Positions 3,238 through 55,636 of a stretch of DNA of 64,000 nucleotides are shown here, in pieces (within the stretch, counting starts at the first letter, position 1; each line of letters starts with the position of its first letter). Source of the DNA: an uncultured Gemmatimonadaceae bacterium. Its GTDB lineage: Bacteria > Gemmatimonadota > Gemmatimonadetes > Gemmatimonadales > Gemmatimonadaceae. A program made the position numbers and the translations under genes. Location of the stretch: contig CAWFQK010000002.1 of the NCBI GenBank assembly GCA_963817955.1, forward strand, positions 736,001-800,000, in the 5' to 3' direction. The notes beneath the pieces were generated by a model that did not search any database, was not told the origin of the DNA, and saw only the letters and a list, made by a program, of their open reading frames with translations.

Positions 3238-3260
3238 CGAACCGGCACAGCGCGCCGGCC

Positions 3261-3650
3261 TGTCATCCTGAGCGAAGCTTGTCATCCTGAGCGAAGCGAA
3301 GGATCTCGGTGACCGACAGAACAGCTTTTGAACGCAGAGGTCGCAGAGAACTGCAAGAGAGAACTGCAGAGGACTGCAAAAGAGAACTGCAAAAGAAGAC
3401 TGGAAAAGGGAACTGCAAGAGAGAACTGCAAGCGTACGGAAGAGGGAAGCGCGTATCGGTGGAATGAACTGTGATTGCCGAGTCCACAATCATTCCGCCT
3501 ATATCGTTGATGATCCCGACCTGGGCGATACCATCGGAGCGTCACGGCATCATCCACGACTTCCTGGCGAGACAATCCTTCACGGTCCTCTGCAGTTCTC
3601 TCTTTGCAGTTCTCTGCGACCTCTGCGTTCAAAGGCTGTTCTGTCGGTCA
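3261..3650. mobile_element. palindromic element copy A (non-autonomous, GxxExxY-deletion derivative)
   Basis: Two TGTCATCCTGAGCGAAGC units at the left end. Inverted arms 3310-3374 / 3585-3650 (1 mismatch, 1 gap). AACTGC tandem array. Core matches the 5' end of the GxxExxY gene (MIVDSAITVHS on the minus strand). Confidence 0.8.
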
Positions 3651-4286
3651 GTTCGACAGTCCCTTGGGCCGGCGCGCGAGCGGTACGGGTCGGCTGATCA
3701 CCCCGGCGGGGGCCTCGGCTACCCAGACATCGTTGTCGCGGGCGATCTCCATGAGATCGGCGGGCACGGGCATAGCCGTAGGTCCAAGCATACGGCCGCC
3801 CGGCTTGAGACTCGCACGCAACGACGCGATCATGGCGCTATCCGCCGCTGCGTCAACGGCAACGCCGTCCGCAGTGCCCGGCGCCACCGGCAAGCTATGT
3901 GATAAGACGATGGACACACCGTCGCCACTCACGACGCCGTCAGGCGGGTTGATCAGCAGCAGCTGGGCCGGCGACAGCCCACGCATGATCGGCGCTTGCA
4001 CGCCCCACGCTCCATGCAGCACGGCAGTCATGCGCGCCTCCGTGAGACCGAGCGCTGCGGCCAGGCGCATCGCGTCTGCCTCGGACGGATCGCTCCACGG
4101 AGCCCGGGGCACCGCCGGTGCGAATTCGACGATGCCGTGGTGAATCGGGTATTCGGCGAGACACGTGGGGCACCCGAGCGTACCCTCCTGAATGTCGCGA
4201 TCCTCGATGCGGTCCATCGACGCGACGAGCCATGTTTCCTCATGCACATTGAGACAACGAAGGAGGTCGACGAGCGGAATGAACAC
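3648..4286 (-). CDS. hypothetical protein: Trm112-like N-terminus plus degenerate methyltransferase-like C-terminus
   Basis: LLRC...EGTLGCPTCLAEYPIHHGI resembles Trm112; LRASLKPGGRML resembles a methyltransferase post-motif. GTG start at 4286. Confidence 0.55.
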   Translation of the reverse strand: MFIPLVDLLRCLNVHEETWLVASMDRIEDRDIQEGTLGCPTCLAEYPIHHGIVEFAPAVPRAPWSDPSEADAMRLAAALGLTEARMTAVLHGAWGVQAPIMRGLSPAQLLLINPPDGVVSGDGVSIVLSHSLPVAPGTADGVAVDAAADSAMIASLRASLKPGGRMLGPTAMPVPADLMEIARDNDVWVAEAPAGVISRPVPLARRPKGLSN

Positions 4287-7135: not shown

Positions 7136-7198
7136 CTGGTGCTAATGGCCTTCGCGAAGGTTCGGTGACACGGGGGACACGGGTTACATGGGGGATGG

Positions 7199-7773
7199 GA
7201 CACGAGACACGCGAAGCGCTGTCATCCTGAGCGAAGCGAAGGATCTCTGGGAACGATAGACCAGCTTCTGAACGCAGAGGTCGCAGAGAACTGCAGGAGA
7301 ACTGCAAGAGAGAACTGCAAGAGAGAACTGCAAGAGCGAACTGCAAGAGCGAACTGCAAGAGCGAACTGCAAGAGAACTGGAAAAGGGAACGGCAAAGAC
7401 AACTGTAAGCGTACGGAGGACGGAAGCGCGTATCAGTGGAATGAACCGTGAATGCCAAGTCCACAATCATTCCGCCTGCAGCGTCAATGATCCCGACCTG
7501 GGCGATACCATCGGAGCGTCACGACGACATCAGCCCAGTCTTCCAGGCGAGACAATCCTTCGCAGTCCTCTGCAGTTCTCTTGCAGTTCTCTTCTCTGCG
7601 ACCTCTGCGTTCAAAAGCTGGTCTATCGTTCCCAGAGATCCTTCGCTTCGCTCAGGATGACAAGCTTCGCTCAGGATGACAAGCTTCGCTCTGGATGACA
7701 AGCTTCGCTCTGGATGACAGCGCTTCGCTCCGGATGACAGCGCTTCTCGTGTCTCGTGTCTCGTGTCTCGTGT
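7199..7773. mobile_element. palindromic element copy B (non-autonomous, GxxExxY-deletion derivative)
   Basis: 71-bp inverted arms 7220-7290 / 7592-7662 with 1 mismatch. About 10 AACTGC-type units, five 19-20 bp REP-half tandem units at 7645-7741, outer GACACGA/TCGTGTC 7-mers, and a GxxExxY 5' remnant. Confidence 0.85.
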
Positions 7774-8167: not shown

Positions 8168-9139
8168 TCAGATCTCCCAATTGGACAACACGAGCCCATG
8201 GTCCGGCCGCTGCTCTTCGAAGCCGCCGTACGACATGCGCAAATCCGTCCATCGGACATGCCCGCCGAGCGCCACCATGCGCTGGTACACGAATGGGAAT
8301 TCACCTTGCACGCGGACCGCGACTCGCCGCGTCCCGCTGCGCCGCGCGAAGTCGGCCACGGCGCGCAGCAGCGCGTCGAACCGCGACTCAGCGTCGACGA
8401 CCAGCTTCAGGACGCGCAGTTCCTCCCGAATGCGTCCCTCGACCAGCGGCGTCGTATGCGCCAGGGCAAACCCAGCGATGCGATCTCCGTCATAGAGCAA
8501 CACGGTGTCGCCCAGTGAAAGCTCGCTGGTCAGGTTGAGCTCCCGCGTATAGTCGTATCCCGAAAGCAACTGCTGCGCGAGAGCGTGACACTGGGCGATC
8601 GCGTCAGCCCTGGCTTGGGGCGATAAGCGGGAGAGCACCTTCGCGGGCATGTCGTCATACGCCGACTCCACGGTCACGGTGATCGTCAACCGCCCAGGAA
8701 GAAAGCCGAGGCGCGAATAGAAACCGATGTTGTCCATCGTGCGCGGCATCGTTTCCAGACCGATGACCGCTGCGCCATGCGCACGTAGCCACTCGACGCC
8801 GTGCTTCACGATCTCCTTCCCCGTTCCGCTGCCCTGGTACTCCGTGCGCACCGCCAGTGGTCCCATCCAGCCTTCGGTGCCCGAACGGTGCACCATGTTG
8901 AATGCGACAATGTGACCACGCTCATCGCGCCAGAGCATGGCCCCTTCGTCAGCGTCCTCGATGGCGTACCGCCAGATGGCCGGATTCAGGAAGGGAACGC
9001 GGACGCCCACCATGCCGTCGCGGCGATACCGCTCGGTGAATGAATCGCTGAAGACCTGATTCAGCTCGCCGATATTGTCGATCTGCGCGCGGAACGGTCC
9101 ATCCACCGTCTGTTGCCGCCAGGAACGTGAAGTCGCCAT
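8168..9139 (-). CDS. GNAT family N-acetyltransferase
   Basis: LAVRTEYQGSGTGK acetyl-CoA motif and FYSRLGF. Start overlaps the rad50 stop by one base. Confidence 0.8.
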   Translation of the reverse strand: MATSRSWRQQTVDGPFRAQIDNIGELNQVFSDSFTERYRRDGMVGVRVPFLNPAIWRYAIEDADEGAMLWRDERGHIVAFNMVHRSGTEGWMGPLAVRTEYQGSGTGKEIVKHGVEWLRAHGAAVIGLETMPRTMDNIGFYSRLGFLPGRLTITVTVESAYDDMPAKVLSRLSPQARADAIAQCHALAQQLLSGYDYTRELNLTSELSLGDTVLLYDGDRIAGFALAHTTPLVEGRIREELRVLKLVVDAESRFDALLRAVADFARRSGTRRVAVRVQGEFPFVYQRMVALGGHVRWTDLRMSYGGFEEQRPDHGLVLSNWEI

Positions 9140-11583
9140 CAGTCAGCCGCTCCCGCTTGAAGATCCAGCGCCACGCCACGCGCCGCGCTGTCCGTCTCGA
9201 CGCGCGAGACGCCCAACTCCTCGTTGTACTGCATCGATACCACGCGATCCAGACCTTCACGTACCGACTCGATATGCGTGATCAGAATGACCTGCTCGAA
9301 GCGGTCCTGCAGCCGGCGCAACAGATCCACGACGTTGTGCCGCCGCGTCTCGTCGAGCGAGCCGAAGACCTCGTCCAGAATGAGAAGCGAGAACGCCTGC
9401 CCCGCACGTTCCGCAATCATCTCTGAGATTGCAAGGCGGAGCACCAGGTTCGCCAGGTCCTCTTCGCCGCCGGAGATCACCGGCTTGGGAATCGCGTCCT
9501 CCACCATCGTCACATTGTACTGCTCGTCCAGCTCGATGCCACTGTACCGGCCGTCGGTGAGATCGCGGATGTATTGGCTGGCGCGATCGCAGATTTCCGG
9601 GCGCAGCTCCTGATTGAGGTCGGTGCGCAGGTCGCCGAAGGCGCGATCGAGCTCGTCGTGCAGCCGACGGTCGCGATCGAGCACCGCGAGCCGCTCCAAC
9701 CCACGCGCCAGATCCGCGCTCGCCTGGTTGGCGCTCTCGAGCGCCGCCCGGGCCGACGCCAACTCCGCTTCGGAGCTCACGGCCGCGAGTTCGGAGGTGC
9801 GCAGCTCCGCCGCGGCCGCCTCGTACAGGTCGCGCATCTGCCCGAAGCTCTGTTCGGAGAACGTCAGCAGCTGCCGTCGTTCGCCGAGTGCGGTGATACG
9901 CGCCGTCGCCTGCTCCAACGCGGTGCGAACGCGCTCCCGATCAGCAAGCAGCTGCGGCTCGCGCTCGAGTTGCCCGTTGAGACGCGCGCTGAGGTTTGCC
10001 AACGGCACCAATCGCTCGACCAGCGCTCTCACCTCAGCGTGCCTCGTGGCGTCGTATACGACGGAGATGCTCGCGAGCTCGCGTGCCAATGCCGTGTGGC
10101 GCTCCTCCTTCGTCACGATGTCACGAGTGATCGATGCGAGCTCCTGCACCGCCGTCTGTACCCTGACCAGACGGCGCTCCATCTTCGACGCGTTCTCAAA
10201 GGCCAAACGCCGCCGCTCGCCGAGCGCCTTGATCTCTGGCGGCATCTCCTGGAGCTGCTCGATACGGGCGCGATAGTACTTGCCATCCACAGTAATCGTG
10301 TCGATCTGGCTCTCGAACAGCTCGAGCACGGTGCGGAAGTGCGTCCCGAGCGGCCGCGCGCAGATGGGACAGATCCCGTTTTCGCCGAGGTCGATCACGT
10401 GATTGCGATTCTGTTCGGCCTCGCGGAGCTGATCGAGCAGAGCCTGCCGCTTGGTCTCGGCTTCCTGCTTGTCACGAATCCAATCGTTCTGTGCGGTTTC
10501 CAGGTCCCCCTGCACCTGAAACAGCTCGGCGCGCGCCTGCTCGAGGGCCGTCGCGGCGTCTGCCTCCAGCGTCGGGGCACTCTCGATCTTCGCGCGCCGC
10601 TCGCGAATCCGGTCGAGCTCTTCACACAAGGAGGCATCCATCTCGGCCAAGGTGCGGCGCCGCGAGTCCTCGTTGCAGCTCCGCTCGAGCTCTCGCAGCG
10701 CAGCCTGCAGTTGGGGTAGAGGGGCGAGATCCACCGACAGCCTCGCCAGCTCAGTGCGTGCCGCCGCGGTCTCGGTGAGCTCTCGCTCGATCCGGGACAG
10801 ATCGCGGTGAGTGGAGGCTCGCTCCGCCTCCGCGAGGCGGATCTCCGCGAGCAGCTGCTGCATGGCATCACGCGCGCGCTGGATCGTCTCCCATTGCGGA
10901 GTAAGCGCATCGAGTGCCTGGCGAGCGATGCCTCGCCGTGCCGTCATTGCCTCGGCGGCCGCGTGGGCTACCGTCAGACGCGTCGTGGCACCGGCGACCG
11001 CTCGCTTTACCATCTCGGCGTCGGGCATCGCGACCCGTACACCCGACGACTCCGCGATGATCGCCTTCTTTCGATCACGCACAAGCGTTTGCGCCGTCCG
11101 GAGCCGCTCGTAGCCGAGCACGCGCGACAGGAATTGCGCGCGCTCCGCCGGCCCCATCGCGGCCATGATGCTCAGTTCTTTCTGGCCGGTAAAGTACGTG
11201 TTGAAGAATTCCTGCTGCGTCATGCCGAGCCGGCGCCGCAGGAAGTCCGTCACGCCCGTGATGGAATTCGCGACCGGGGCCGAACCGCCGTCGAGATAGA
11301 CTTCGGCGCTCGTCAATCCACGCGCAACGAAATACCGGTGGCCGCCGAGCTCGAAATCGAGCTCCACCTTGACCTGCGCACGAGCCGGCGCGCGGTACGC
11401 GCGAATGGACTCGCGCGTGCCGCGCGCGGCGGACGTGCCATACAGCGCCCAGGCGATTGCTTCGAGGATCGTAGACTTTCCCGCGCCATTCGGCCCGATG
11501 ATGCCCGTAATGCCAACGTCGAACTCGATCCGGGTATCGAGGTGCTGCCGAAAGTTGCAGAGCCGCAAACTGATGAGGCGCAT
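9139..11583 (-). CDS. sbcC: Rad50/SbcC SMC-family ATPase
   Basis: Walker A GPNGAGKS, long coiled coil, zinc hook CPIC, signature ISGGE, Walker B LILDEVFGSLD, ILITH. Confidence 0.92.
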   Translation of the reverse strand: MRLISLRLCNFRQHLDTRIEFDVGITGIIGPNGAGKSTILEAIAWALYGTSAARGTRESIRAYRAPARAQVKVELDFELGGHRYFVARGLTSAEVYLDGGSAPVANSITGVTDFLRRRLGMTQQEFFNTYFTGQKELSIMAAMGPAERAQFLSRVLGYERLRTAQTLVRDRKKAIIAESSGVRVAMPDAEMVKRAVAGATTRLTVAHAAAEAMTARRGIARQALDALTPQWETIQRARDAMQQLLAEIRLAEAERASTHRDLSRIERELTETAAARTELARLSVDLAPLPQLQAALRELERSCNEDSRRRTLAEMDASLCEELDRIRERRAKIESAPTLEADAATALEQARAELFQVQGDLETAQNDWIRDKQEAETKRQALLDQLREAEQNRNHVIDLGENGICPICARPLGTHFRTVLELFESQIDTITVDGKYYRARIEQLQEMPPEIKALGERRRLAFENASKMERRLVRVQTAVQELASITRDIVTKEERHTALARELASISVVYDATRHAEVRALVERLVPLANLSARLNGQLEREPQLLADRERVRTALEQATARITALGERRQLLTFSEQSFGQMRDLYEAAAAELRTSELAAVSSEAELASARAALESANQASADLARGLERLAVLDRDRRLHDELDRAFGDLRTDLNQELRPEICDRASQYIRDLTDGRYSGIELDEQYNVTMVEDAIPKPVISGGEEDLANLVLRLAISEMIAERAGQAFSLLILDEVFGSLDETRRHNVVDLLRRLQDRFEQVILITHIESVREGLDRVVSMQYNEELGVSRVETDSAARGVALDLQAGAAD

Positions 11584-19940: not shown

Positions 19941-20557
19941 TCTCCGACGGCTACTTCTCGGGAGGAGCCGCTGGTTGGATCGAGGTGATCTGCGGCGTGA
20001 TGTTCAGCGGCAAGAGCGAAGAGCTCATTCGCCGCGTACGCCGCGCGATCATCGCGAAGAGAAAAGTGCAAGTGTTCAAGTCCCATCTCGACGAGCGGTA
20101 CGCCGGTATCTATCACATCTCCAGCCACGATGGGCGCTCGGTGGAGGCGGTGCCAATCGACACACCTGAGCAGATCGGACAGCTCATCGAGTCCGACACG
20201 CAGGTGGTGGCGATTGACGAGGCGCAATTCCTCGACGCCACGATCGTAGATCTGGTGACGTCGCTCGCGAACCGAGGTGTCCGCGTCATCGTCGCCGGCA
20301 CGGACAATGACTTTCGCGGGGAGCCATTCGGCCCCATGCCACAGCTCCTCGCTATCGCGGAGGTCGTAGACAAGCTCCATGCGATTTGCGTGATCTGTGG
20401 CAATCCGGCCAGCCGCAACCAGCGCCTCATTGCCGGGAAACCGGCACGGTACGATTCGCCGACCATCATGGTGGGCAGCACCGAGTCATACGAAGCCCGG
20501 TGTCGCGCCTGCCATTCGGTGCCGCGACGCGACGAAGACCAGGTCCGGCTGCTCTGA
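19937..20557 (+). CDS. tdk: thymidine kinase
   Basis: [22 protein letters not shown] and YEARCRAC motifs. Confidence 0.95.
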
Positions 20558-21065
20558 CACGAGACACGGGATGCCCGTCGCCCCGAGCGATGTCTGTCAT
20601 CCTGAGCGAAGCGTGTCATCCTGCGCGAAGCCTGTCATCCTGAGCGAAGCGAAGGATCTCTGCGACCAAAAGAACAGCATTTACCACAGAGCGGCCCAAC
20701 AGCTTTTAACGCAGAGGTCGCAGAGAACTGCAGAGAACCGCAGAGGACCGTGAAGGATTGTCTCGCCTGGAAGTCTTGGATGATGCCGTCGTGATGCTCC
20801 GATGGTATCGCCCAGGTCGGGATCATTTAACGATATGGCGGAATGATTGTGGACTCTGCAATCACGGTTCATTCCACCAATACGAGCTTCCCTCTTCCGT
20901 ACGCTTGCAGTTCTCTATTGCAGTTCTCTTCTGCAGTTCTCTTGCAGTTCTCCTGCAGTTCTCTGCGACCTCTGCGTTCAAAAGCTGTTCTGCCGGCCAC
21001 AGAGATCCTTCGCTTCGCTCAGGATGACAGGCTTCGCGCAGGATGACAGACACCTCGTGTCTCGT
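20556..21065. mobile_element. palindromic element copy C (non-autonomous, opposite orientation to A, B and D)
   Basis: Tandem TGTCATCCTG(A/C)GCGAAGC units at 20595-20660, mirrored at 21002-21048. AACGCAGAGGTCGCAGAG arms. GxxExxY remnant on the + strand (ATG 20843, MIVDSAITVHS). Outer GACACGA 7-mers. Confidence 0.85.
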
Positions 21066-21106
21066 ATCGCAGGCCGGTGACCGCTACGGAGCAGTTGTAA
21101 CAGGCG

Positions 21107-26901: not shown

Positions 26902-27885
26902 ATGAGCGGAATCGACGCGATAAAGACTGGAGAGGCATCAGAGCTCGCGGGCGAATTTCTCGATGCCTCTGCAGCGTATCAATCGGCGCTCACCGACGCC
27001 GATCCACTCGTCGTCGCCGATGCACGCTTTCACCTCGGGCGGGTCAGCTGGCGCCAGGGCCGATACGACGAAGCGGTGACGCACTATGACGCCGCGCGCA
27101 TCGTCACCATGCAGTTGGGCGCGAACAACCTTCGCGCGCGTGTGGAGAACGGACTCGGGGTGGTCCACCACGCGCGCGGTGCGTATGCGCAGGCACGCGC
27201 CAGCTACGCGGTAGCGCTGGACATGACCAGCGACCCGGTACAGCGCGGACGCGTCATGCTCAACCTGGGCGCCATCGCCAACATTGAAGGCGACCTCGAG
27301 AGCGCGCGGCTTCACTACGCGAGGAGTCGCGCGCTCTTTCAAGAGTCCGGATACCGCCGCGGGGAGGCACTTGCCCTGCACAATATCGGTATGCTGCACG
27401 CCGACCAGCAGTCGTGGGACGAAGCCGAAGAAGCCTATCGCCGCTGCCTCGAGCTGCTCGAGCAGGAGGGCGACCGGCAAATGATCGCCAACGTGCTGCT
27501 CAACCGCTCGGAGGTGAGCTGTGCACGAACGCGGTACGACGAGGCGATCGCAAACTGCGATCTCGCGCTATCGATCTACTCCGAGATCGGCGATGAGGTG
27601 GGCCGCGGCGAGGCGCTCCGATGGAAGGGCCATGCGCTTTGGCACCTACCGCGGTTCGAAGAGGCCGACCGAGCGATATCCGATGCCATCCGGATCGCGC
27701 ATCGGACGCAGGTCAAGCTGCTCGAAGCGGAAGCGTCCCGCGACCTCGGCGCCAGCCGCGCGGCGCAACGGAATTGGTCGGGTGCCCGCAAGGCGCTCAC
27801 GCGCGCGCTGGTACTGTTCGAGGAGCTCGGCGCGCAGCGCGAAGTCGCGGACGTGCGGGCCGAGTTGGGGCAGCTTGGCTCCTGA
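26902..27885 (+). CDS. tetratricopeptide repeat protein
   Basis: Repeated NLG/NIG-x-A-x-Y helical repeats. Its TGA stop lies inside the left arm of element D. Confidence 0.85.
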   Translation: MSGIDAIKTGEASELAGEFLDASAAYQSALTDADPLVVADARFHLGRVSWRQGRYDEAVTHYDAARIVTMQLGANNLRARVENGLGVVHHARGAYAQARASYAVALDMTSDPVQRGRVMLNLGAIANIEGDLESARLHYARSRALFQESGYRRGEALALHNIGMLHADQQSWDEAEEAYRRCLELLEQEGDRQMIANVLLNRSEVSCARTRYDEAIANCDLALSIYSEIGDEVGRGEALRWKGHALWHLPRFEEADRAISDAIRIAHRTQVKLLEAEASRDLGASRAAQRNWSGARKALTRALVLFEELGAQREVADVRAELGQLGS

Positions 27886-28610
27886 GAGAAGCGAAGGATC
27901 TCGATGAACGGCGCAACAGCTTTTGAACGCAGAGGTCGCAGAGAACTGCAGGAGAACTGCAGAGAACTGAAAAAGAGAGCTGAAGGGGGAAGTGTGGGGG
28001 GGCGCTAGAGGCGATTCGCCACGCGGATGATCCCATCTTTCAGTTGCGCAACGTGGAAGTTGATCAACAGGCCAACCTGCCGATTGCTCAGTTTGAGTTG
28101 GGACAGCAATTGGGCTTTGTGGACCAGCAGGATCTTCGCGGCCGCCTTGACCTCGACGATGACACATTCCTCGACCAGCAGATCTATCCGATAGGCCAGG
28201 TCGAGTTCCACGCCGTCGTACACGAGGGGCATGGGAACCTCGCTGCGAACGTTCAGCCCGCGTTTCCGTAGCTCGTGCGCGAGGCAGACGTGGTATGCGC
28301 GCTCCAGCAACCCGGGGCCCAGCGCGGAATGAACCTTGATTGCCGAGTCCACAATCATTCCGCTCACCTCGTTGATGGTCACGACACGAGCGATACCATC
28401 CGAGCGTCACGAGAGCGTCATCCAAGAATTCCAGGCGATACAATCCTTCACGGTCCTTTGCAGTTCTCTGCAGTTCTCCTGCAGTTCTCTGCGACCTCTG
28501 CGTTAAAAAGCTGTCGCGCCGTTCATCGAGATCCTTCGCTCCGCTCAGGATGACAGGCCTCGGAGATCCTTCGCTTCGCTCAGGATGACAGGCATCATGT
28601 GTCCCGTGTC
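27880..28610. mobile_element. palindromic element copy D, full-length, carrying a GxxExxY gene
   Basis: 90-bp inverted arms 27880-27969 / 28461-28550 with 4 mismatches. Extra REP unit at 28563-28590, then GTGTCCCGTGTC. Confidence 0.85.
28005..28382 (-). CDS. GxxExxY protein (PD-(D/E)xK nuclease-like)
   Basis: VHSALGPGLLERAY gives the GxxExxY motif; RIDLLVEECVIVEVK; GLLINF. Confidence 0.93.
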   Translation of the reverse strand: MTINEVSGMIVDSAIKVHSALGPGLLERAYHVCLAHELRKRGLNVRSEVPMPLVYDGVELDLAYRIDLLVEECVIVEVKAAAKILLVHKAQLLSQLKLSNRQVGLLINFHVAQLKDGIIRVANRL

Positions 28611-28669
28611 GCCCTGCGGAGCATGCCCTCGAGCTTGTGACTCCTGTCCAGCACTATTTCAACAGGCTG

Positions 28670-29335
28670 CTAACCGCGCGTCGTATACGCCAGGGTGAGG
28701 AATTCCTCTCGCGTACGCGGATCGGAGCGGAAGAGGCCCCGTAGCGCGCTCGTGATGGTCTTGGAGCTCTGCTTCTCCACGCCGCGCATCATCATGCACA
28801 GGTGGTAGGCCTCGATCACCACGCCCACACCCATGGGGTTGAGCACGTCCTGGATTGCCGTGGCGACCTGCTCGGTGAGTCGCTCCTGCACCTGAAGTCG
28901 CCGGGCGAACACTTCGATCAGCCGCGGAATCTTGCTCAGGCCGACGATCTTGCCGTTCGGGATGTAGGCAATGTGCGCGCGGCCGTAAAATGGCAGCATG
29001 TGGTGCTCGCAGAGGCTGTACAGCTCAATGTCGCGCACCATGACCATGTTGCTCGCGCCATCCGCGTCGAACAGCGCTCCATCGACGATATGAGCGACGT
29101 CCATCTCGTAGCCCCGCGTGAGCCACGCCAGCGACGTCGCGACACGGTCTGGCGTGCGCAACAACCCCTCGCGGTCGGGATCCTCGCCAAGTAGCTCGAG
29201 CTGGCGCCGCACCAGATCGCGAAACTCGTGGTTCGAGGACCCACTCTCAATGAACTCCTCGGGGGAAGCGGTCACGGAATCTCCGGTGAGGGGCATTGAA
29301 TCTTGCATGGTTTCTCGAGGGACGTGGCTGCTCAT
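28670..29335 (-). CDS. folE: GTP cyclohydrolase I
   Basis: [39 protein letters not shown] and HLCMMMRGV motifs. Start may be 29308. Confidence 0.95.
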
Positions 29336-54867: not shown

Positions 54868-54963
54868 GGGATACGGGACACGGGACACGGGACACGGGAC
54901 AACGGGACAACGGGACAACGGGACAACGGGATGCCTGTCATCCTGAGCGAAGCGAAGGATCTC
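54868..54963. repeat. half element E: tandem CGGGACA(A) array plus one REP unit
   Basis: About seven CGGGACA/CGGGACAA units followed by TGTCATCCTGAGCGAAGCGAAGGATCTC (54936-54963). Confidence 0.85.
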
Positions 54964-54964
54964 T

Positions 54965-55636
54965 GTGACCGGTGAGCTGTGGGTCAATCGCCTCGGCATC
55001 ATGCCCTACGCCCAGGCGCTGGATCTTCAGCGGGAGACAGCGCGGGCCCGAATATCGGGCGAAATACCAGAAGACGTCCTGTTGCTGGTGGAGCATCCCC
55101 CCGTGGTCACCATGGGCCGATCGGCCAAGCAGCAGCATCTGCTCGCCTCGCCGGAGTTGCTCGCGGCGCGTGGAGTAGAGTTGTTCGACGTCGAGCGCGG
55201 CGGCGACGTGACTTTCCATGGCCCGGGTCAGCTGGTCGGCTACCCGATCATCGATCTCAAGCGGCACAAGCAGGACCTGCACTGGTACCTCAGGCAGGTC
55301 GAGCAAGCCCTCATCCTTGCGCTGGGCCACGTCGGTATTCCCGCCGGTCGGAGTGCAGGCTACACGGGCGTGTGGACCCAAGACGGGGCACGCAAGATCG
55401 CCTCGATCGGCGTACACGCACGTGATTGGGTCACCTGGCACGGGTTTGCCCTCAACATCTCCACCGATCTACGCTATTTCGACCTCATCGTGCCCTGTGG
55501 CATCGACCAGGTAAGCATGACGTCAGTGGACCGTGAGCGTGGCGACAAGACCGTCACCTTAGAGCGCATGTCAGACCTCGTGGCCCAGACGTTCGGCGAG
55601 GTGTTCACGCTCTCGCCGCGCGAAACTATGAGCTAG
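54965..55636 (+). CDS. lipB: octanoyltransferase
   Basis: EHPPVVTMG, RGGDVTFHGPGQLVGYP, KIASIG and IVPCG motifs. Confidence 0.95.
   Translation: MTGELWVNRLGIMPYAQALDLQRETARARISGEIPEDVLLLVEHPPVVTMGRSAKQQHLLASPELLAARGVELFDVERGGDVTFHGPGQLVGYPIIDLKRHKQDLHWYLRQVEQALILALGHVGIPAGRSAGYTGVWTQDGARKIASIGVHARDWVTWHGFALNISTDLRYFDLIVPCGIDQVSMTSVDRERGDKTVTLERMSDLVAQTFGEVFTLSPRETMS

Follow-up and report, generated by a model that had tools for sequence, protein, structure and literature searches.

The DNA examined here (hereafter the window) is a 64,000-nucleotide stretch from an uncultured Gemmatimonadaceae bacterium (contig CAWFQK010000002.1, positions 736,001–800,000). Between a tetratricopeptide-repeat (TPR) gene and a convergent folE gene it contains a small gene of the GxxExxY family, enclosed by two long inverted arms (Table 1). 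A first-pass annotation, made from the letters alone, had described the gene as intact, as the only convincing gene between arms that are reverse complements with four mismatches, and as the candidate autonomous member of an undescribed mobile system. The arm count was reproduced exactly (4 of 90 positions mismatched between 27880–27969 and the reverse complement of 28461–28550), and a repeat finder extends the pair to 97 nt with 94% complementarity (inverted repeat I1). The 125-residue GxxExxY open reading frame (ORF) is the sole family-matched ORF between the arms. We find that, of the two gene-carrying ('master') copies of a selfish element, one lies in the window. The element is bounded by a hairpin, has multiplied in this lineage and consists of inverted arms, in which GCAGAG words recur at intervals of about one helical turn, followed by a leader and the GxxExxY gene.

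The product of the gene matches the profiles PDDEXK_3 (PF13366; E = 8.8e-38, 129.7 bits against a cut-off of 22) and GxxExxY (TIGR04256; E = 2.7e-39, 134.1 bits against a cut-off of 35). The motif G24-x-x-E27-x-x-Y30 (G24, E27 and Y30) and residues D67, E77 and K79 are invariant in 23 aligned sequences; from what is known of the superfamily, we take the last three to be the PD-(D/E)xK catalytic motif. An AlphaFold2 (AF2) model (pLDDT 85, pTM 0.82) has a restriction-endonuclease-like α/β fold, and its best VIA matches are all PD-(D/E)xK nucleases [TT1808 (Z = 7.9), BpuSI (7.8), BglII (7.7), Cas4 (7.1–7.2) and Hjc (6.3)], with the Cas4 protein SSO0001 as the best Foldseek match (E = 9e-3). A sequence search of the PDB with the protein gave no match at E ≤ 1. 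With VIA Z scores below 8, the structural matches to this model point to a nuclease-like fold, not to a function. The family comprises at least 7,994 protein clusters at E ≤ 1e-5, and Steczkiewicz et al. (2012; PMC3424549) give its function as 'Unknown' and record multiple transfers. The protein is 54–66% identical across more than ten bacterial phyla and in one archaeal metagenome-assembled genome (MAG; L114, DAOURL010000135.1, Methanosarcinales; loci L055–L134), a level of identity that is unusually high for a protein of 125 residues and implies repeated horizontal transfer.

Read in the sense of the gene, the 5′ arm begins with its array of GCAGAG words, followed by a segment of ∼18 nt that is matched in the other arm and then by an outer module, GAAGGATCTC / CCTGAGCG. 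The leader between this arm and the GTG start codon gives 46 blastn matches in the source genome, the window copy included, at 76–100% identity, and its conservation in an alignment of 37 copies is 80–99%. It holds a direct repeat of a (G/C)(A/G)TGACG motif, and a similar motif lies near the genes of relatives; this repeat may be a promoter or a binding site. At 28395–28430 of the window, and near the GxxExxY genes of clade A, the (G/C)ATGACG repeats are ∼12–13 nt apart and are followed by TATC/TAAC. The repeat stands inside the arm in the window and in loci L023, L025 and L028, and outside it in L014, L016, L018 and L030. A scan of 27700–28800 for σ70 promoters and intrinsic terminators found none, and Rfam at gathering thresholds gave no match anywhere in the window.

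A blastn search of the source genome (G000; 4.53 Mb in nine contigs, 64% G+C, 94% complete) with the element returned 91 loci, 54 of them at least 180 bp long. The 25-nt inner core of the arm, with up to three mismatches allowed, occurs 49 times in forward and 49 times in reverse orientation, against no match for the reversed control pattern, and 42 adjacent pairs of opposite orientation, 150–700 nt apart, constitute hairpin-forming inverted doublets. The core is absent from 27 of 30 congeners and present in one or two copies in each of the other three; the arm family is private to the source genome. The complete gene is found at only two loci, in the window and at C2:315558–316243, and a profile search of the whole genome returned exactly two PF13366 genes, both inside the element. 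These two differ at 22 of 378 nucleotides, 17 in synonymous and five in non-synonymous codons, from which it follows that both copies are under purifying selection.

The remaining copies are short. A probe consisting of the gene gave 40 matches in the source genome: the two full genes, one 45-nt match to the 3′ end and 37 others, of which 36 are 38–57 nt long, start at gene nucleotide 322 and end by nucleotide 378 (the last starts at nucleotide 320). The short copies, about 40 of them dispersed, retain the leader and the first ∼19 codons; in each of the 15 that were inspected, one and the same ∼29-nt junction sequence links the stub to the 3′ arm, and this junction is also present in the consensus of 37 copies. 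The common junction and the stub indicate that a single internal-deletion derivative of the gene-carrying element was copied many times; descent ran from the gene-carrying form to the short copies. A different deletion, which keeps the 3′ end of the gene, is found at C2:439814. The three other loci of the window at which the first-pass annotation saw the arms with a mere remnant of the gene (gene-less copies 1–3) do share arms, leader and ∼19 codons, and its picture of a repeat family in which gene-less copies accompany a gene-carrying one is borne out on the genome scale by 98 arm cores, ∼47 gene-less copies and two genes.

Orthologous sites lacking the element, which the first-pass annotation had suggested looking for at the TPR–folE junction, were found. 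The comparisons were made with congeners at 70–84% identity, a divergence too great for reading exact ends. TPR and folE abut in G014 and G018, with spacers of ∼12 and ∼1 nt, and in G021 their matched stretches are 85 nt apart. At the second gene-carrying site the flank matches lie 111–390 nt apart in at least 13 congeners, none of which has a GxxExxY match there, against 810–850 nt in the source genome. The site of gene-less copy 1 is empty in G009, where ∼13 nt separate two convergent stop codons, and, compared with the source genome, the intergenic region that holds gene-less copy 2 is shorter by 584 nt in G016 and by ∼500 nt in G009. The nearest relatives of the protein (75% amino-acid identity; L023, L025 and L028) sit at another locus; when the site of one gene copy in the source genome was compared with theirs, the gene alone matched. 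The empty sites, the private arm core and the location of the relatives elsewhere together indicate that the lineage of the source genome alone acquired the gene-carrying form at two new sites and the short form at ∼47. The last sense codon and TGA stop of the TPR gene (27880–27885) fall inside the outer end of the 3′ arm. Its C-terminal residues (27877–27885) are unlike those of congeners with an empty site, and the insertion thus appears to have replaced the end of the gene.

By rough gene calls, in which 2,949 ORFs take up 74% of the source genome, all 52 short copies are intergenic. Elements lie between convergent genes in 22 of 54 cases, against an expectation of 17% of intergenic gaps (p = 3.5e-5), and between divergent genes in five of 54. 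The site of gene-less copy 1 is occupied in another congener (L144; G002:C13:112700–113400) by a different hairpin, a terminator-like G+C stem and T run set between inverted GTCGTCA / GACAGTCGAC words; since the two differ, one intergenic spot can hold unrelated hairpins in different species.

The pairing of gene and arms extends through the genus, all 31 genomes of which carry one to nine PF13366 genes. The 42 best matches outside the source genome, less two too near a contig start, gave 40 loci, in which a gene was counted as having arms when an inverted repeat that scored 30 bits or more bracketed it closely; left and right flanks paired across loci served as the control. Such arms flank 21 of the 40 genes, against one of 40 in the mismatched control. 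They are inverted arrays of short words (GCAGAG, GCGGAG, CACAGAG and GCAAAG), and the words of other protein clades are CACGGA, GCGGAT and GCAGAT. In the tree, the clade of the window protein (17 rows, support 100/100) goes with NCAGAG-type words and the other clade with other words or none; within one host genus, words track protein clades. At one locus that is orthologous in eight genomes, arms match better within a genome than between genomes (mean local score 37 versus 27), and only six of the 40,320 possible pairings of these arms reach the observed sum, which indicates that the two arms co-evolve. The same locus shows that a cassette can be vertically inherited for long.

A profile-guided scan for more distant relatives yielded 80 loci at 54–66% identity, 67 of them with both flanks. 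They derive from Gemmatimonadota, Acidobacteriota, Chloroflexota, Cyanobacteriota, Planctomycetota, Bacteroidota, Verrucomicrobiota and several Pseudomonadota, and further from Desulfobacterota-type MAGs, Synergistales, Bdellovibrionales and the one Methanosarcinales MAG. At the same threshold, 42 of the 67 loci have a flanking inverted repeat, against eight of 67 in the mismatched control, where the matches arise because different loci share the same words. The purine word stands upstream on the sense strand in 40 loci, is reversed in one and is unclear in 26; the step from one GCAGAG(G)-type word to the next is 9 or 10 nt in 152 of 203 cases. The AACGCAGAGGTCGCAGAG-type arm of the window is the local form of this cross-phylum pairing of protein and word, and the supposition that GCAGAG-type arms and GxxExxY genes co-occur across genomes accordingly holds both in the genus and across phyla.

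Congeners also contain gene-less hairpins of ∼240 nt with arms of GCAGAGAC words and no gene stub. They were sought with the word CGCAGAGACGC, a search used for locating only, its reversed control being void as the word reads the same backwards. Two such hairpins are orthologous (L139, G017:C2:347105–347613, and L140, G020:C2:2467449–2467968): they are 75% identical, flanks included, and stand directly after a stop codon, so gene-less hairpins can persist across speciation.

With its private burst, common deletion junction, empty sites and two selectively maintained coding copies, the genome offers an unusually clean genetic argument for the gene and its word-array arms being one multiplying unit. 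As to the agent, we propose, with our confidence evenly balanced, that the candidate nuclease works on its own arms in the DNA, thereby promotes copying and serves the gene-less copies in trans. The GxxExxY protein would recognise its own word arrays in DNA, or a hairpin or cruciform formed by them, and would cut at the arms; repair or resolution of the break would then copy the unit between the arms. One possible route is a homing-like gene conversion from one arm-bearing site to another; in a second, the unit would be excised and inserted and leave no target duplication. The elements would settle mainly at the 3′ ends of genes and nest inside other palindromic modules.

Several observations weigh against this proposal. 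The GxxExxY protein is without known activity, and its binding to or cutting of the arms is a prediction only. At the threshold used, 19 of the 40 genes in the genus and 25 of the 67 across phyla are without arms. Gene-carrying and gene-less hairpins alike may stay at orthologous loci across species, which suggests long residence and not frequent movement, and the copies in the source genome are only ∼85–90% alike, so that the burst is not recent. The ends of the element are ragged and modular. No direct repeat that could be a target-site duplication stands at the symmetry boundary in 39 of 42 elements, the boundaries being fuzzy, and the other three have direct repeats of 2–3 nt, which is the chance level.

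A further point comes from a different protein family. Four of the five PF05635 four-helix-bundle ('23S rRNA IVS protein', where IVS is intervening sequence) genes in the source genome are boxed in the same manner, by arms of 48–122 nt with 92–97% complementarity made of other phased words (units of 7, 11 and 17 nt). When the four loci were searched by blastn (gene with 330-nt flanks), each gave 46–319 matches, of which as many as ∼120 pile up over the arms, and two of the boxed genes are 94% identical, as with the two similar GxxExxY copies. These proteins are not nucleases; the hairpin cassette is therefore a general vehicle, shared by two unrelated small proteins, that needs no nuclease inside, and the gene may be cargo. 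This finding lowers the claim of the nuclease to be the driver. Each protein lineage nonetheless keeps its own word. The first-pass annotation had proposed a system of the RAYT/REPIN or insertion sequence (IS)/miniature inverted-repeat transposable element (MITE) kind driven by a PD-(D/E)xK enzyme; the gene-less derivatives and empty sites support the repeat-family half of this, and the other half, with the nuclease as driver, is a proposal against which the boxed PF05635 genes weigh.

Generalised, the proposal would make GxxExxY proteins the nucleases of a widespread, undescribed class of prokaryotic mobile elements whose ends are inverted arrays of a cognate word of 6–7 nt, spaced by one helical turn. 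The nuclease would read the arrays, or the cruciform that they form, and trigger copying of the enclosed DNA; the ∼47 gene-less hairpins here would be its non-autonomous dependants, and ORF-bearing rRNA IVSs and four-helix-bundle cassettes would be sister branches. We offer this wider scheme tentatively, as a possibility that we rate below an even chance.

The rival that survives best, although we think it on the unlikely side, is that the word-array hairpin cassette itself propagates, through host processes or an unlinked enzyme, and that the GxxExxY and four-helix-bundle genes are interchangeable passengers which persist by riding the cassette or by giving some benefit. Slippage or template switching at palindromes, SbcCD-type hairpin breakage with recombination between dispersed arms, or some other recombinase could provide the route. 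The boxed PF05635 genes and their deeply stacked arms speak for such a scheme, as do the congeners' gene-less hairpins without a gene remnant, the mosaic outer modules that nest around different inner contents, the lack of a detectable target duplication and the SbcC-like gene in the window. It has to contend with the fact that each gene lineage keeps its own word and a fixed polarity, in one genus and across phyla: with words specific to lineages, a single sequence-reading host factor is not an explanation. Moreover, this arm type has burst only in the genome with the cognate gene, both GxxExxY copies are under purifying selection and the short copies derive from the gene-carrying form. The source genome retains well over a hundred long palindromes despite encoding a subunit of the hairpin-breaking complex. 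Searches for other enzymes were negative: no transposase family was recognised among 43 ORFs of the window scanned against Pfam, in agreement with the initial impression that the window contains none, and the source genome, 94% complete, has no match to Y1/RAYT (PF01797), for which a control search found matches in six of 14 named genomes.

An improbable alternative places the function of the arms in RNA. They would form a long double-stranded stem cut by RNase III, which would release the enclosed mRNA from read-through transcripts or insulate it from them; gene-less copies at the ends of genes would be terminators or mRNA stabilisers, and multiplication would be a by-product. The predicted transcript does fold into a terminal stem of ∼95 bp around the ORF (−374.8 kcal/mol, z = −14.3 against shuffles), no promoter-like site was scored inside the element, and the elements are enriched between convergent genes. 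ORF-bearing 23S rRNA IVSs, as PMC4990558 depicts them, share the design and are cut by RNase III. The mismatches in the stems, however, carry no sign of such a role. G·U-compatible and A·C mismatches on the sense strand number 26 and 20 in 43 elements of the source genome, 26 and 20 in 21 genus loci and 18 and 23 in 42 cross-phylum loci; pooled, there is no G·U excess (70 versus 63, p = 0.60), which argues against selection on a sense-strand RNA helix, and the pattern is consistent with pairing, or with homogenisation, of the DNA itself. The two 23S rRNA genes of the source genome have no gene-sized insert (both are 2975 nt, against a model of 2925 positions), a stem alone needs no conserved word with a phasing of 9–10 nt, and the origin of the ∼49 copies would be left unexplained.

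That there is no element at all, only ordinary intergenic repeats or a segmental duplication flanking the gene by chance, is scarcely credible: other short tandem repeats are indeed abundant in the source genome, but such a reading founders on 98 arm cores against none in the control, on a junction and stub common to dispersed sites, on empty orthologous sites and on the recurrence of the pattern across phyla.

Among described systems, the closest in outline are the ORF-bearing 23S rRNA IVSs of Coxiella burnetii and Leptospira, which, according to PMC4990558, are units of 400–700 nt with one small ORF, terminal inverted repeats and a long stem. The same source describes them as sporadic, horizontally acquired and then vertically kept, with origin and mobility unexplained, and mentions an old suggestion that the ORF serves mobility. 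In the window element, too, terminal inverted repeats pair into a stem that encloses a small ORF, and the IVS protein family, PF05635, is boxed alike in the source genome. It differs in lying between TPR and folE and not in helix 25 or 45 of a 23S rRNA gene, in encoding a PD-(D/E)xK GxxExxY protein and not S23p, and in having arms of ∼95 nt of phased words, ∼47 gene-less copies and no G·U signature of an RNA stem. With REPINs and RAYTs (PMC3116915) it shares hairpin-forming inverted doublets that are extragenic and without target duplication, many non-coding copies, very few gene copies and a gene that is itself flanked by the repeats. Unlike those systems, the source genome has no Y1/HUH (PF01797) gene, and the associated GxxExxY protein folds differently. 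In place of REPs of ∼20 nt the arms have long arrays of phased words, and the short copies hold a gene stub, which REPINs do not.

An IS/MITE pair consists of an autonomous element and its internal-deletion derivatives. Here, too, there are terminal inverted repeats, far more numerous short copies that arose by internal deletion from the coding copy and have its termini, and insertion polymorphism between species; there is, in contrast, no known transposase family and no target-site duplication, the ends are ragged and modular, and the arms are much longer than typical IS ends. Some homing endonucleases are PD-(D/E)xK enzymes, and a small free-standing nuclease gene resembles a homing endonuclease gene when its surroundings could be both the site that the nuclease recognises and the homology by which the gene is copied into 'empty' sites that bear the arms. 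The GxxExxY gene is, however, in no intron or intein, many dispersed targets would be required and cleavage specificity is only putative. Integron attC cassettes were set aside on design alone, as the arms here flank the gene on both sides. The element thus fails the defining features of an IVS (it is not in rRNA), of REPIN/RAYT (there is no RAYT) and of IS/MITE (there is no known transposase or target duplication). A literature search that excluded subscription journals found no published description of GxxExxY genes boxed in inverted word arrays, and a selfish element of this kind does not seem to have been described.

Should the nuclease be the driver, bacterial mobile DNA would gain a new class of enzyme, and a large part of the intergenic 'word' hairpins that are so far unexplained in many phyla would be accounted for. 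Such a driver would also suggest where rRNA intervening sequences may have come from, and it would be a small nuclease, specific for sequence or structure, to study. If the gene is cargo, the question shifts to how long palindromes are copied in bacteria that have SbcC as well.

Table 1. Features of the window and boxed PF05635 genes elsewhere in the source genome (contig given).
Feature	Position	Strand	Remarks
GxxExxY / PDDEXK_3 gene	28005–28382	−	Intact, 125 aa, GTG start; profile matches
Leader, 71 nt	28383–28453	−	5′ arm to start codon; retained in gene-less copies
5′ arm (gene sense)	28454–28550	−	Purine-rich GCAGAG words ∼9–11 nt apart
3′ arm (gene sense)	27880–27976	−	Complement of 5′ arm
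Gene-less copy 1	3260–3690		Arms, leader, first ∼19 codons, common deletion junction
Gene-less copy 2	7186–7773		Expanded 13-nt and 19-nt tandem units, outer heptamer runs
Gene-less copy 3	20556–21068		Opposite orientation
TPR gene	26902–27885	+	Flanks element; convergent with folE
folE, GTP cyclohydrolase I	28670–29335	−	Flanks element
Two tandem 34–35-nt outer units (GAGATCCTTCGCT.CGCTCAGGATGACAGGC)	28528–28596		Direct repeat D1; separate widespread module
Solo outer module without inner element	54916–54972		Heptamer run, 19-mer and GAAGGATCTC
SbcC/Rad50-like ATPase gene	9139–11583	−	AAA_23, SMC_N, SbcC_Walker_B
Boxed PF05635 gene	C4:1054669–1054980		Outside window
Boxed PF05635 gene	C4:1553199–1553510		Outside window
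Boxed PF05635 gene	C1:472315–472626		Outside window
Boxed PF05635 gene	C4:1616850–1617152		Outside window

The ends of the element are layered. From the inside outwards there follow 13-nt tandem units, the GCAGAG-word core, which starts near TTTNAAC, the ∼18-nt segment, the module of GAAGGATCTC and a 19-nt unit, and finally heptamer runs. The ∼18-nt segment is often matched between the two arms of one element and differs from element to element. The outer third of the arms, counted as part of the element in the first-pass annotation, is instead a separate and widespread module, to which the outermost ∼45 nt of each arm as then drawn (the …CCTGAGCGAAGCGAAGGATCTC… part) belong. Symmetric outer parts occur in only ∼8 of 46 paired cores, both gene-carrying copies among them, and when the 45 nt beyond the arm core were compared without gaps, the result was 0.42 within and 0.40 between elements, values that are blurred by 1-nt shifts and by the mosaic outer modules. 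The flanks of gene-less copy 1 themselves form an inverted pair, and the overall picture is one of palindromes nested in palindromes.

A search of sequencing runs found small shares of the stretch (0.06–0.11) in three DNA metagenome runs of one study, and no RNA run that contains it; the contigs from these runs are fragments without joints across the element and are uninformative on excision or expression. Heptamer runs of the GACACGG type and of the CAGTTGT/GAGTTGT type form the outermost inverted layer around many elements (for example 7186–7240, 7721–7773 and 28597–28615). The outer unit of 19 or 35 nt (…TGTCATCCTGAGCGAAGC… / GAAGGATCTC) stands alone at 37 short loci and also beside a different inner repeat. 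It is common in congeners, and in the contigs of one soil metagenome run its summed depth is very high, at 316.

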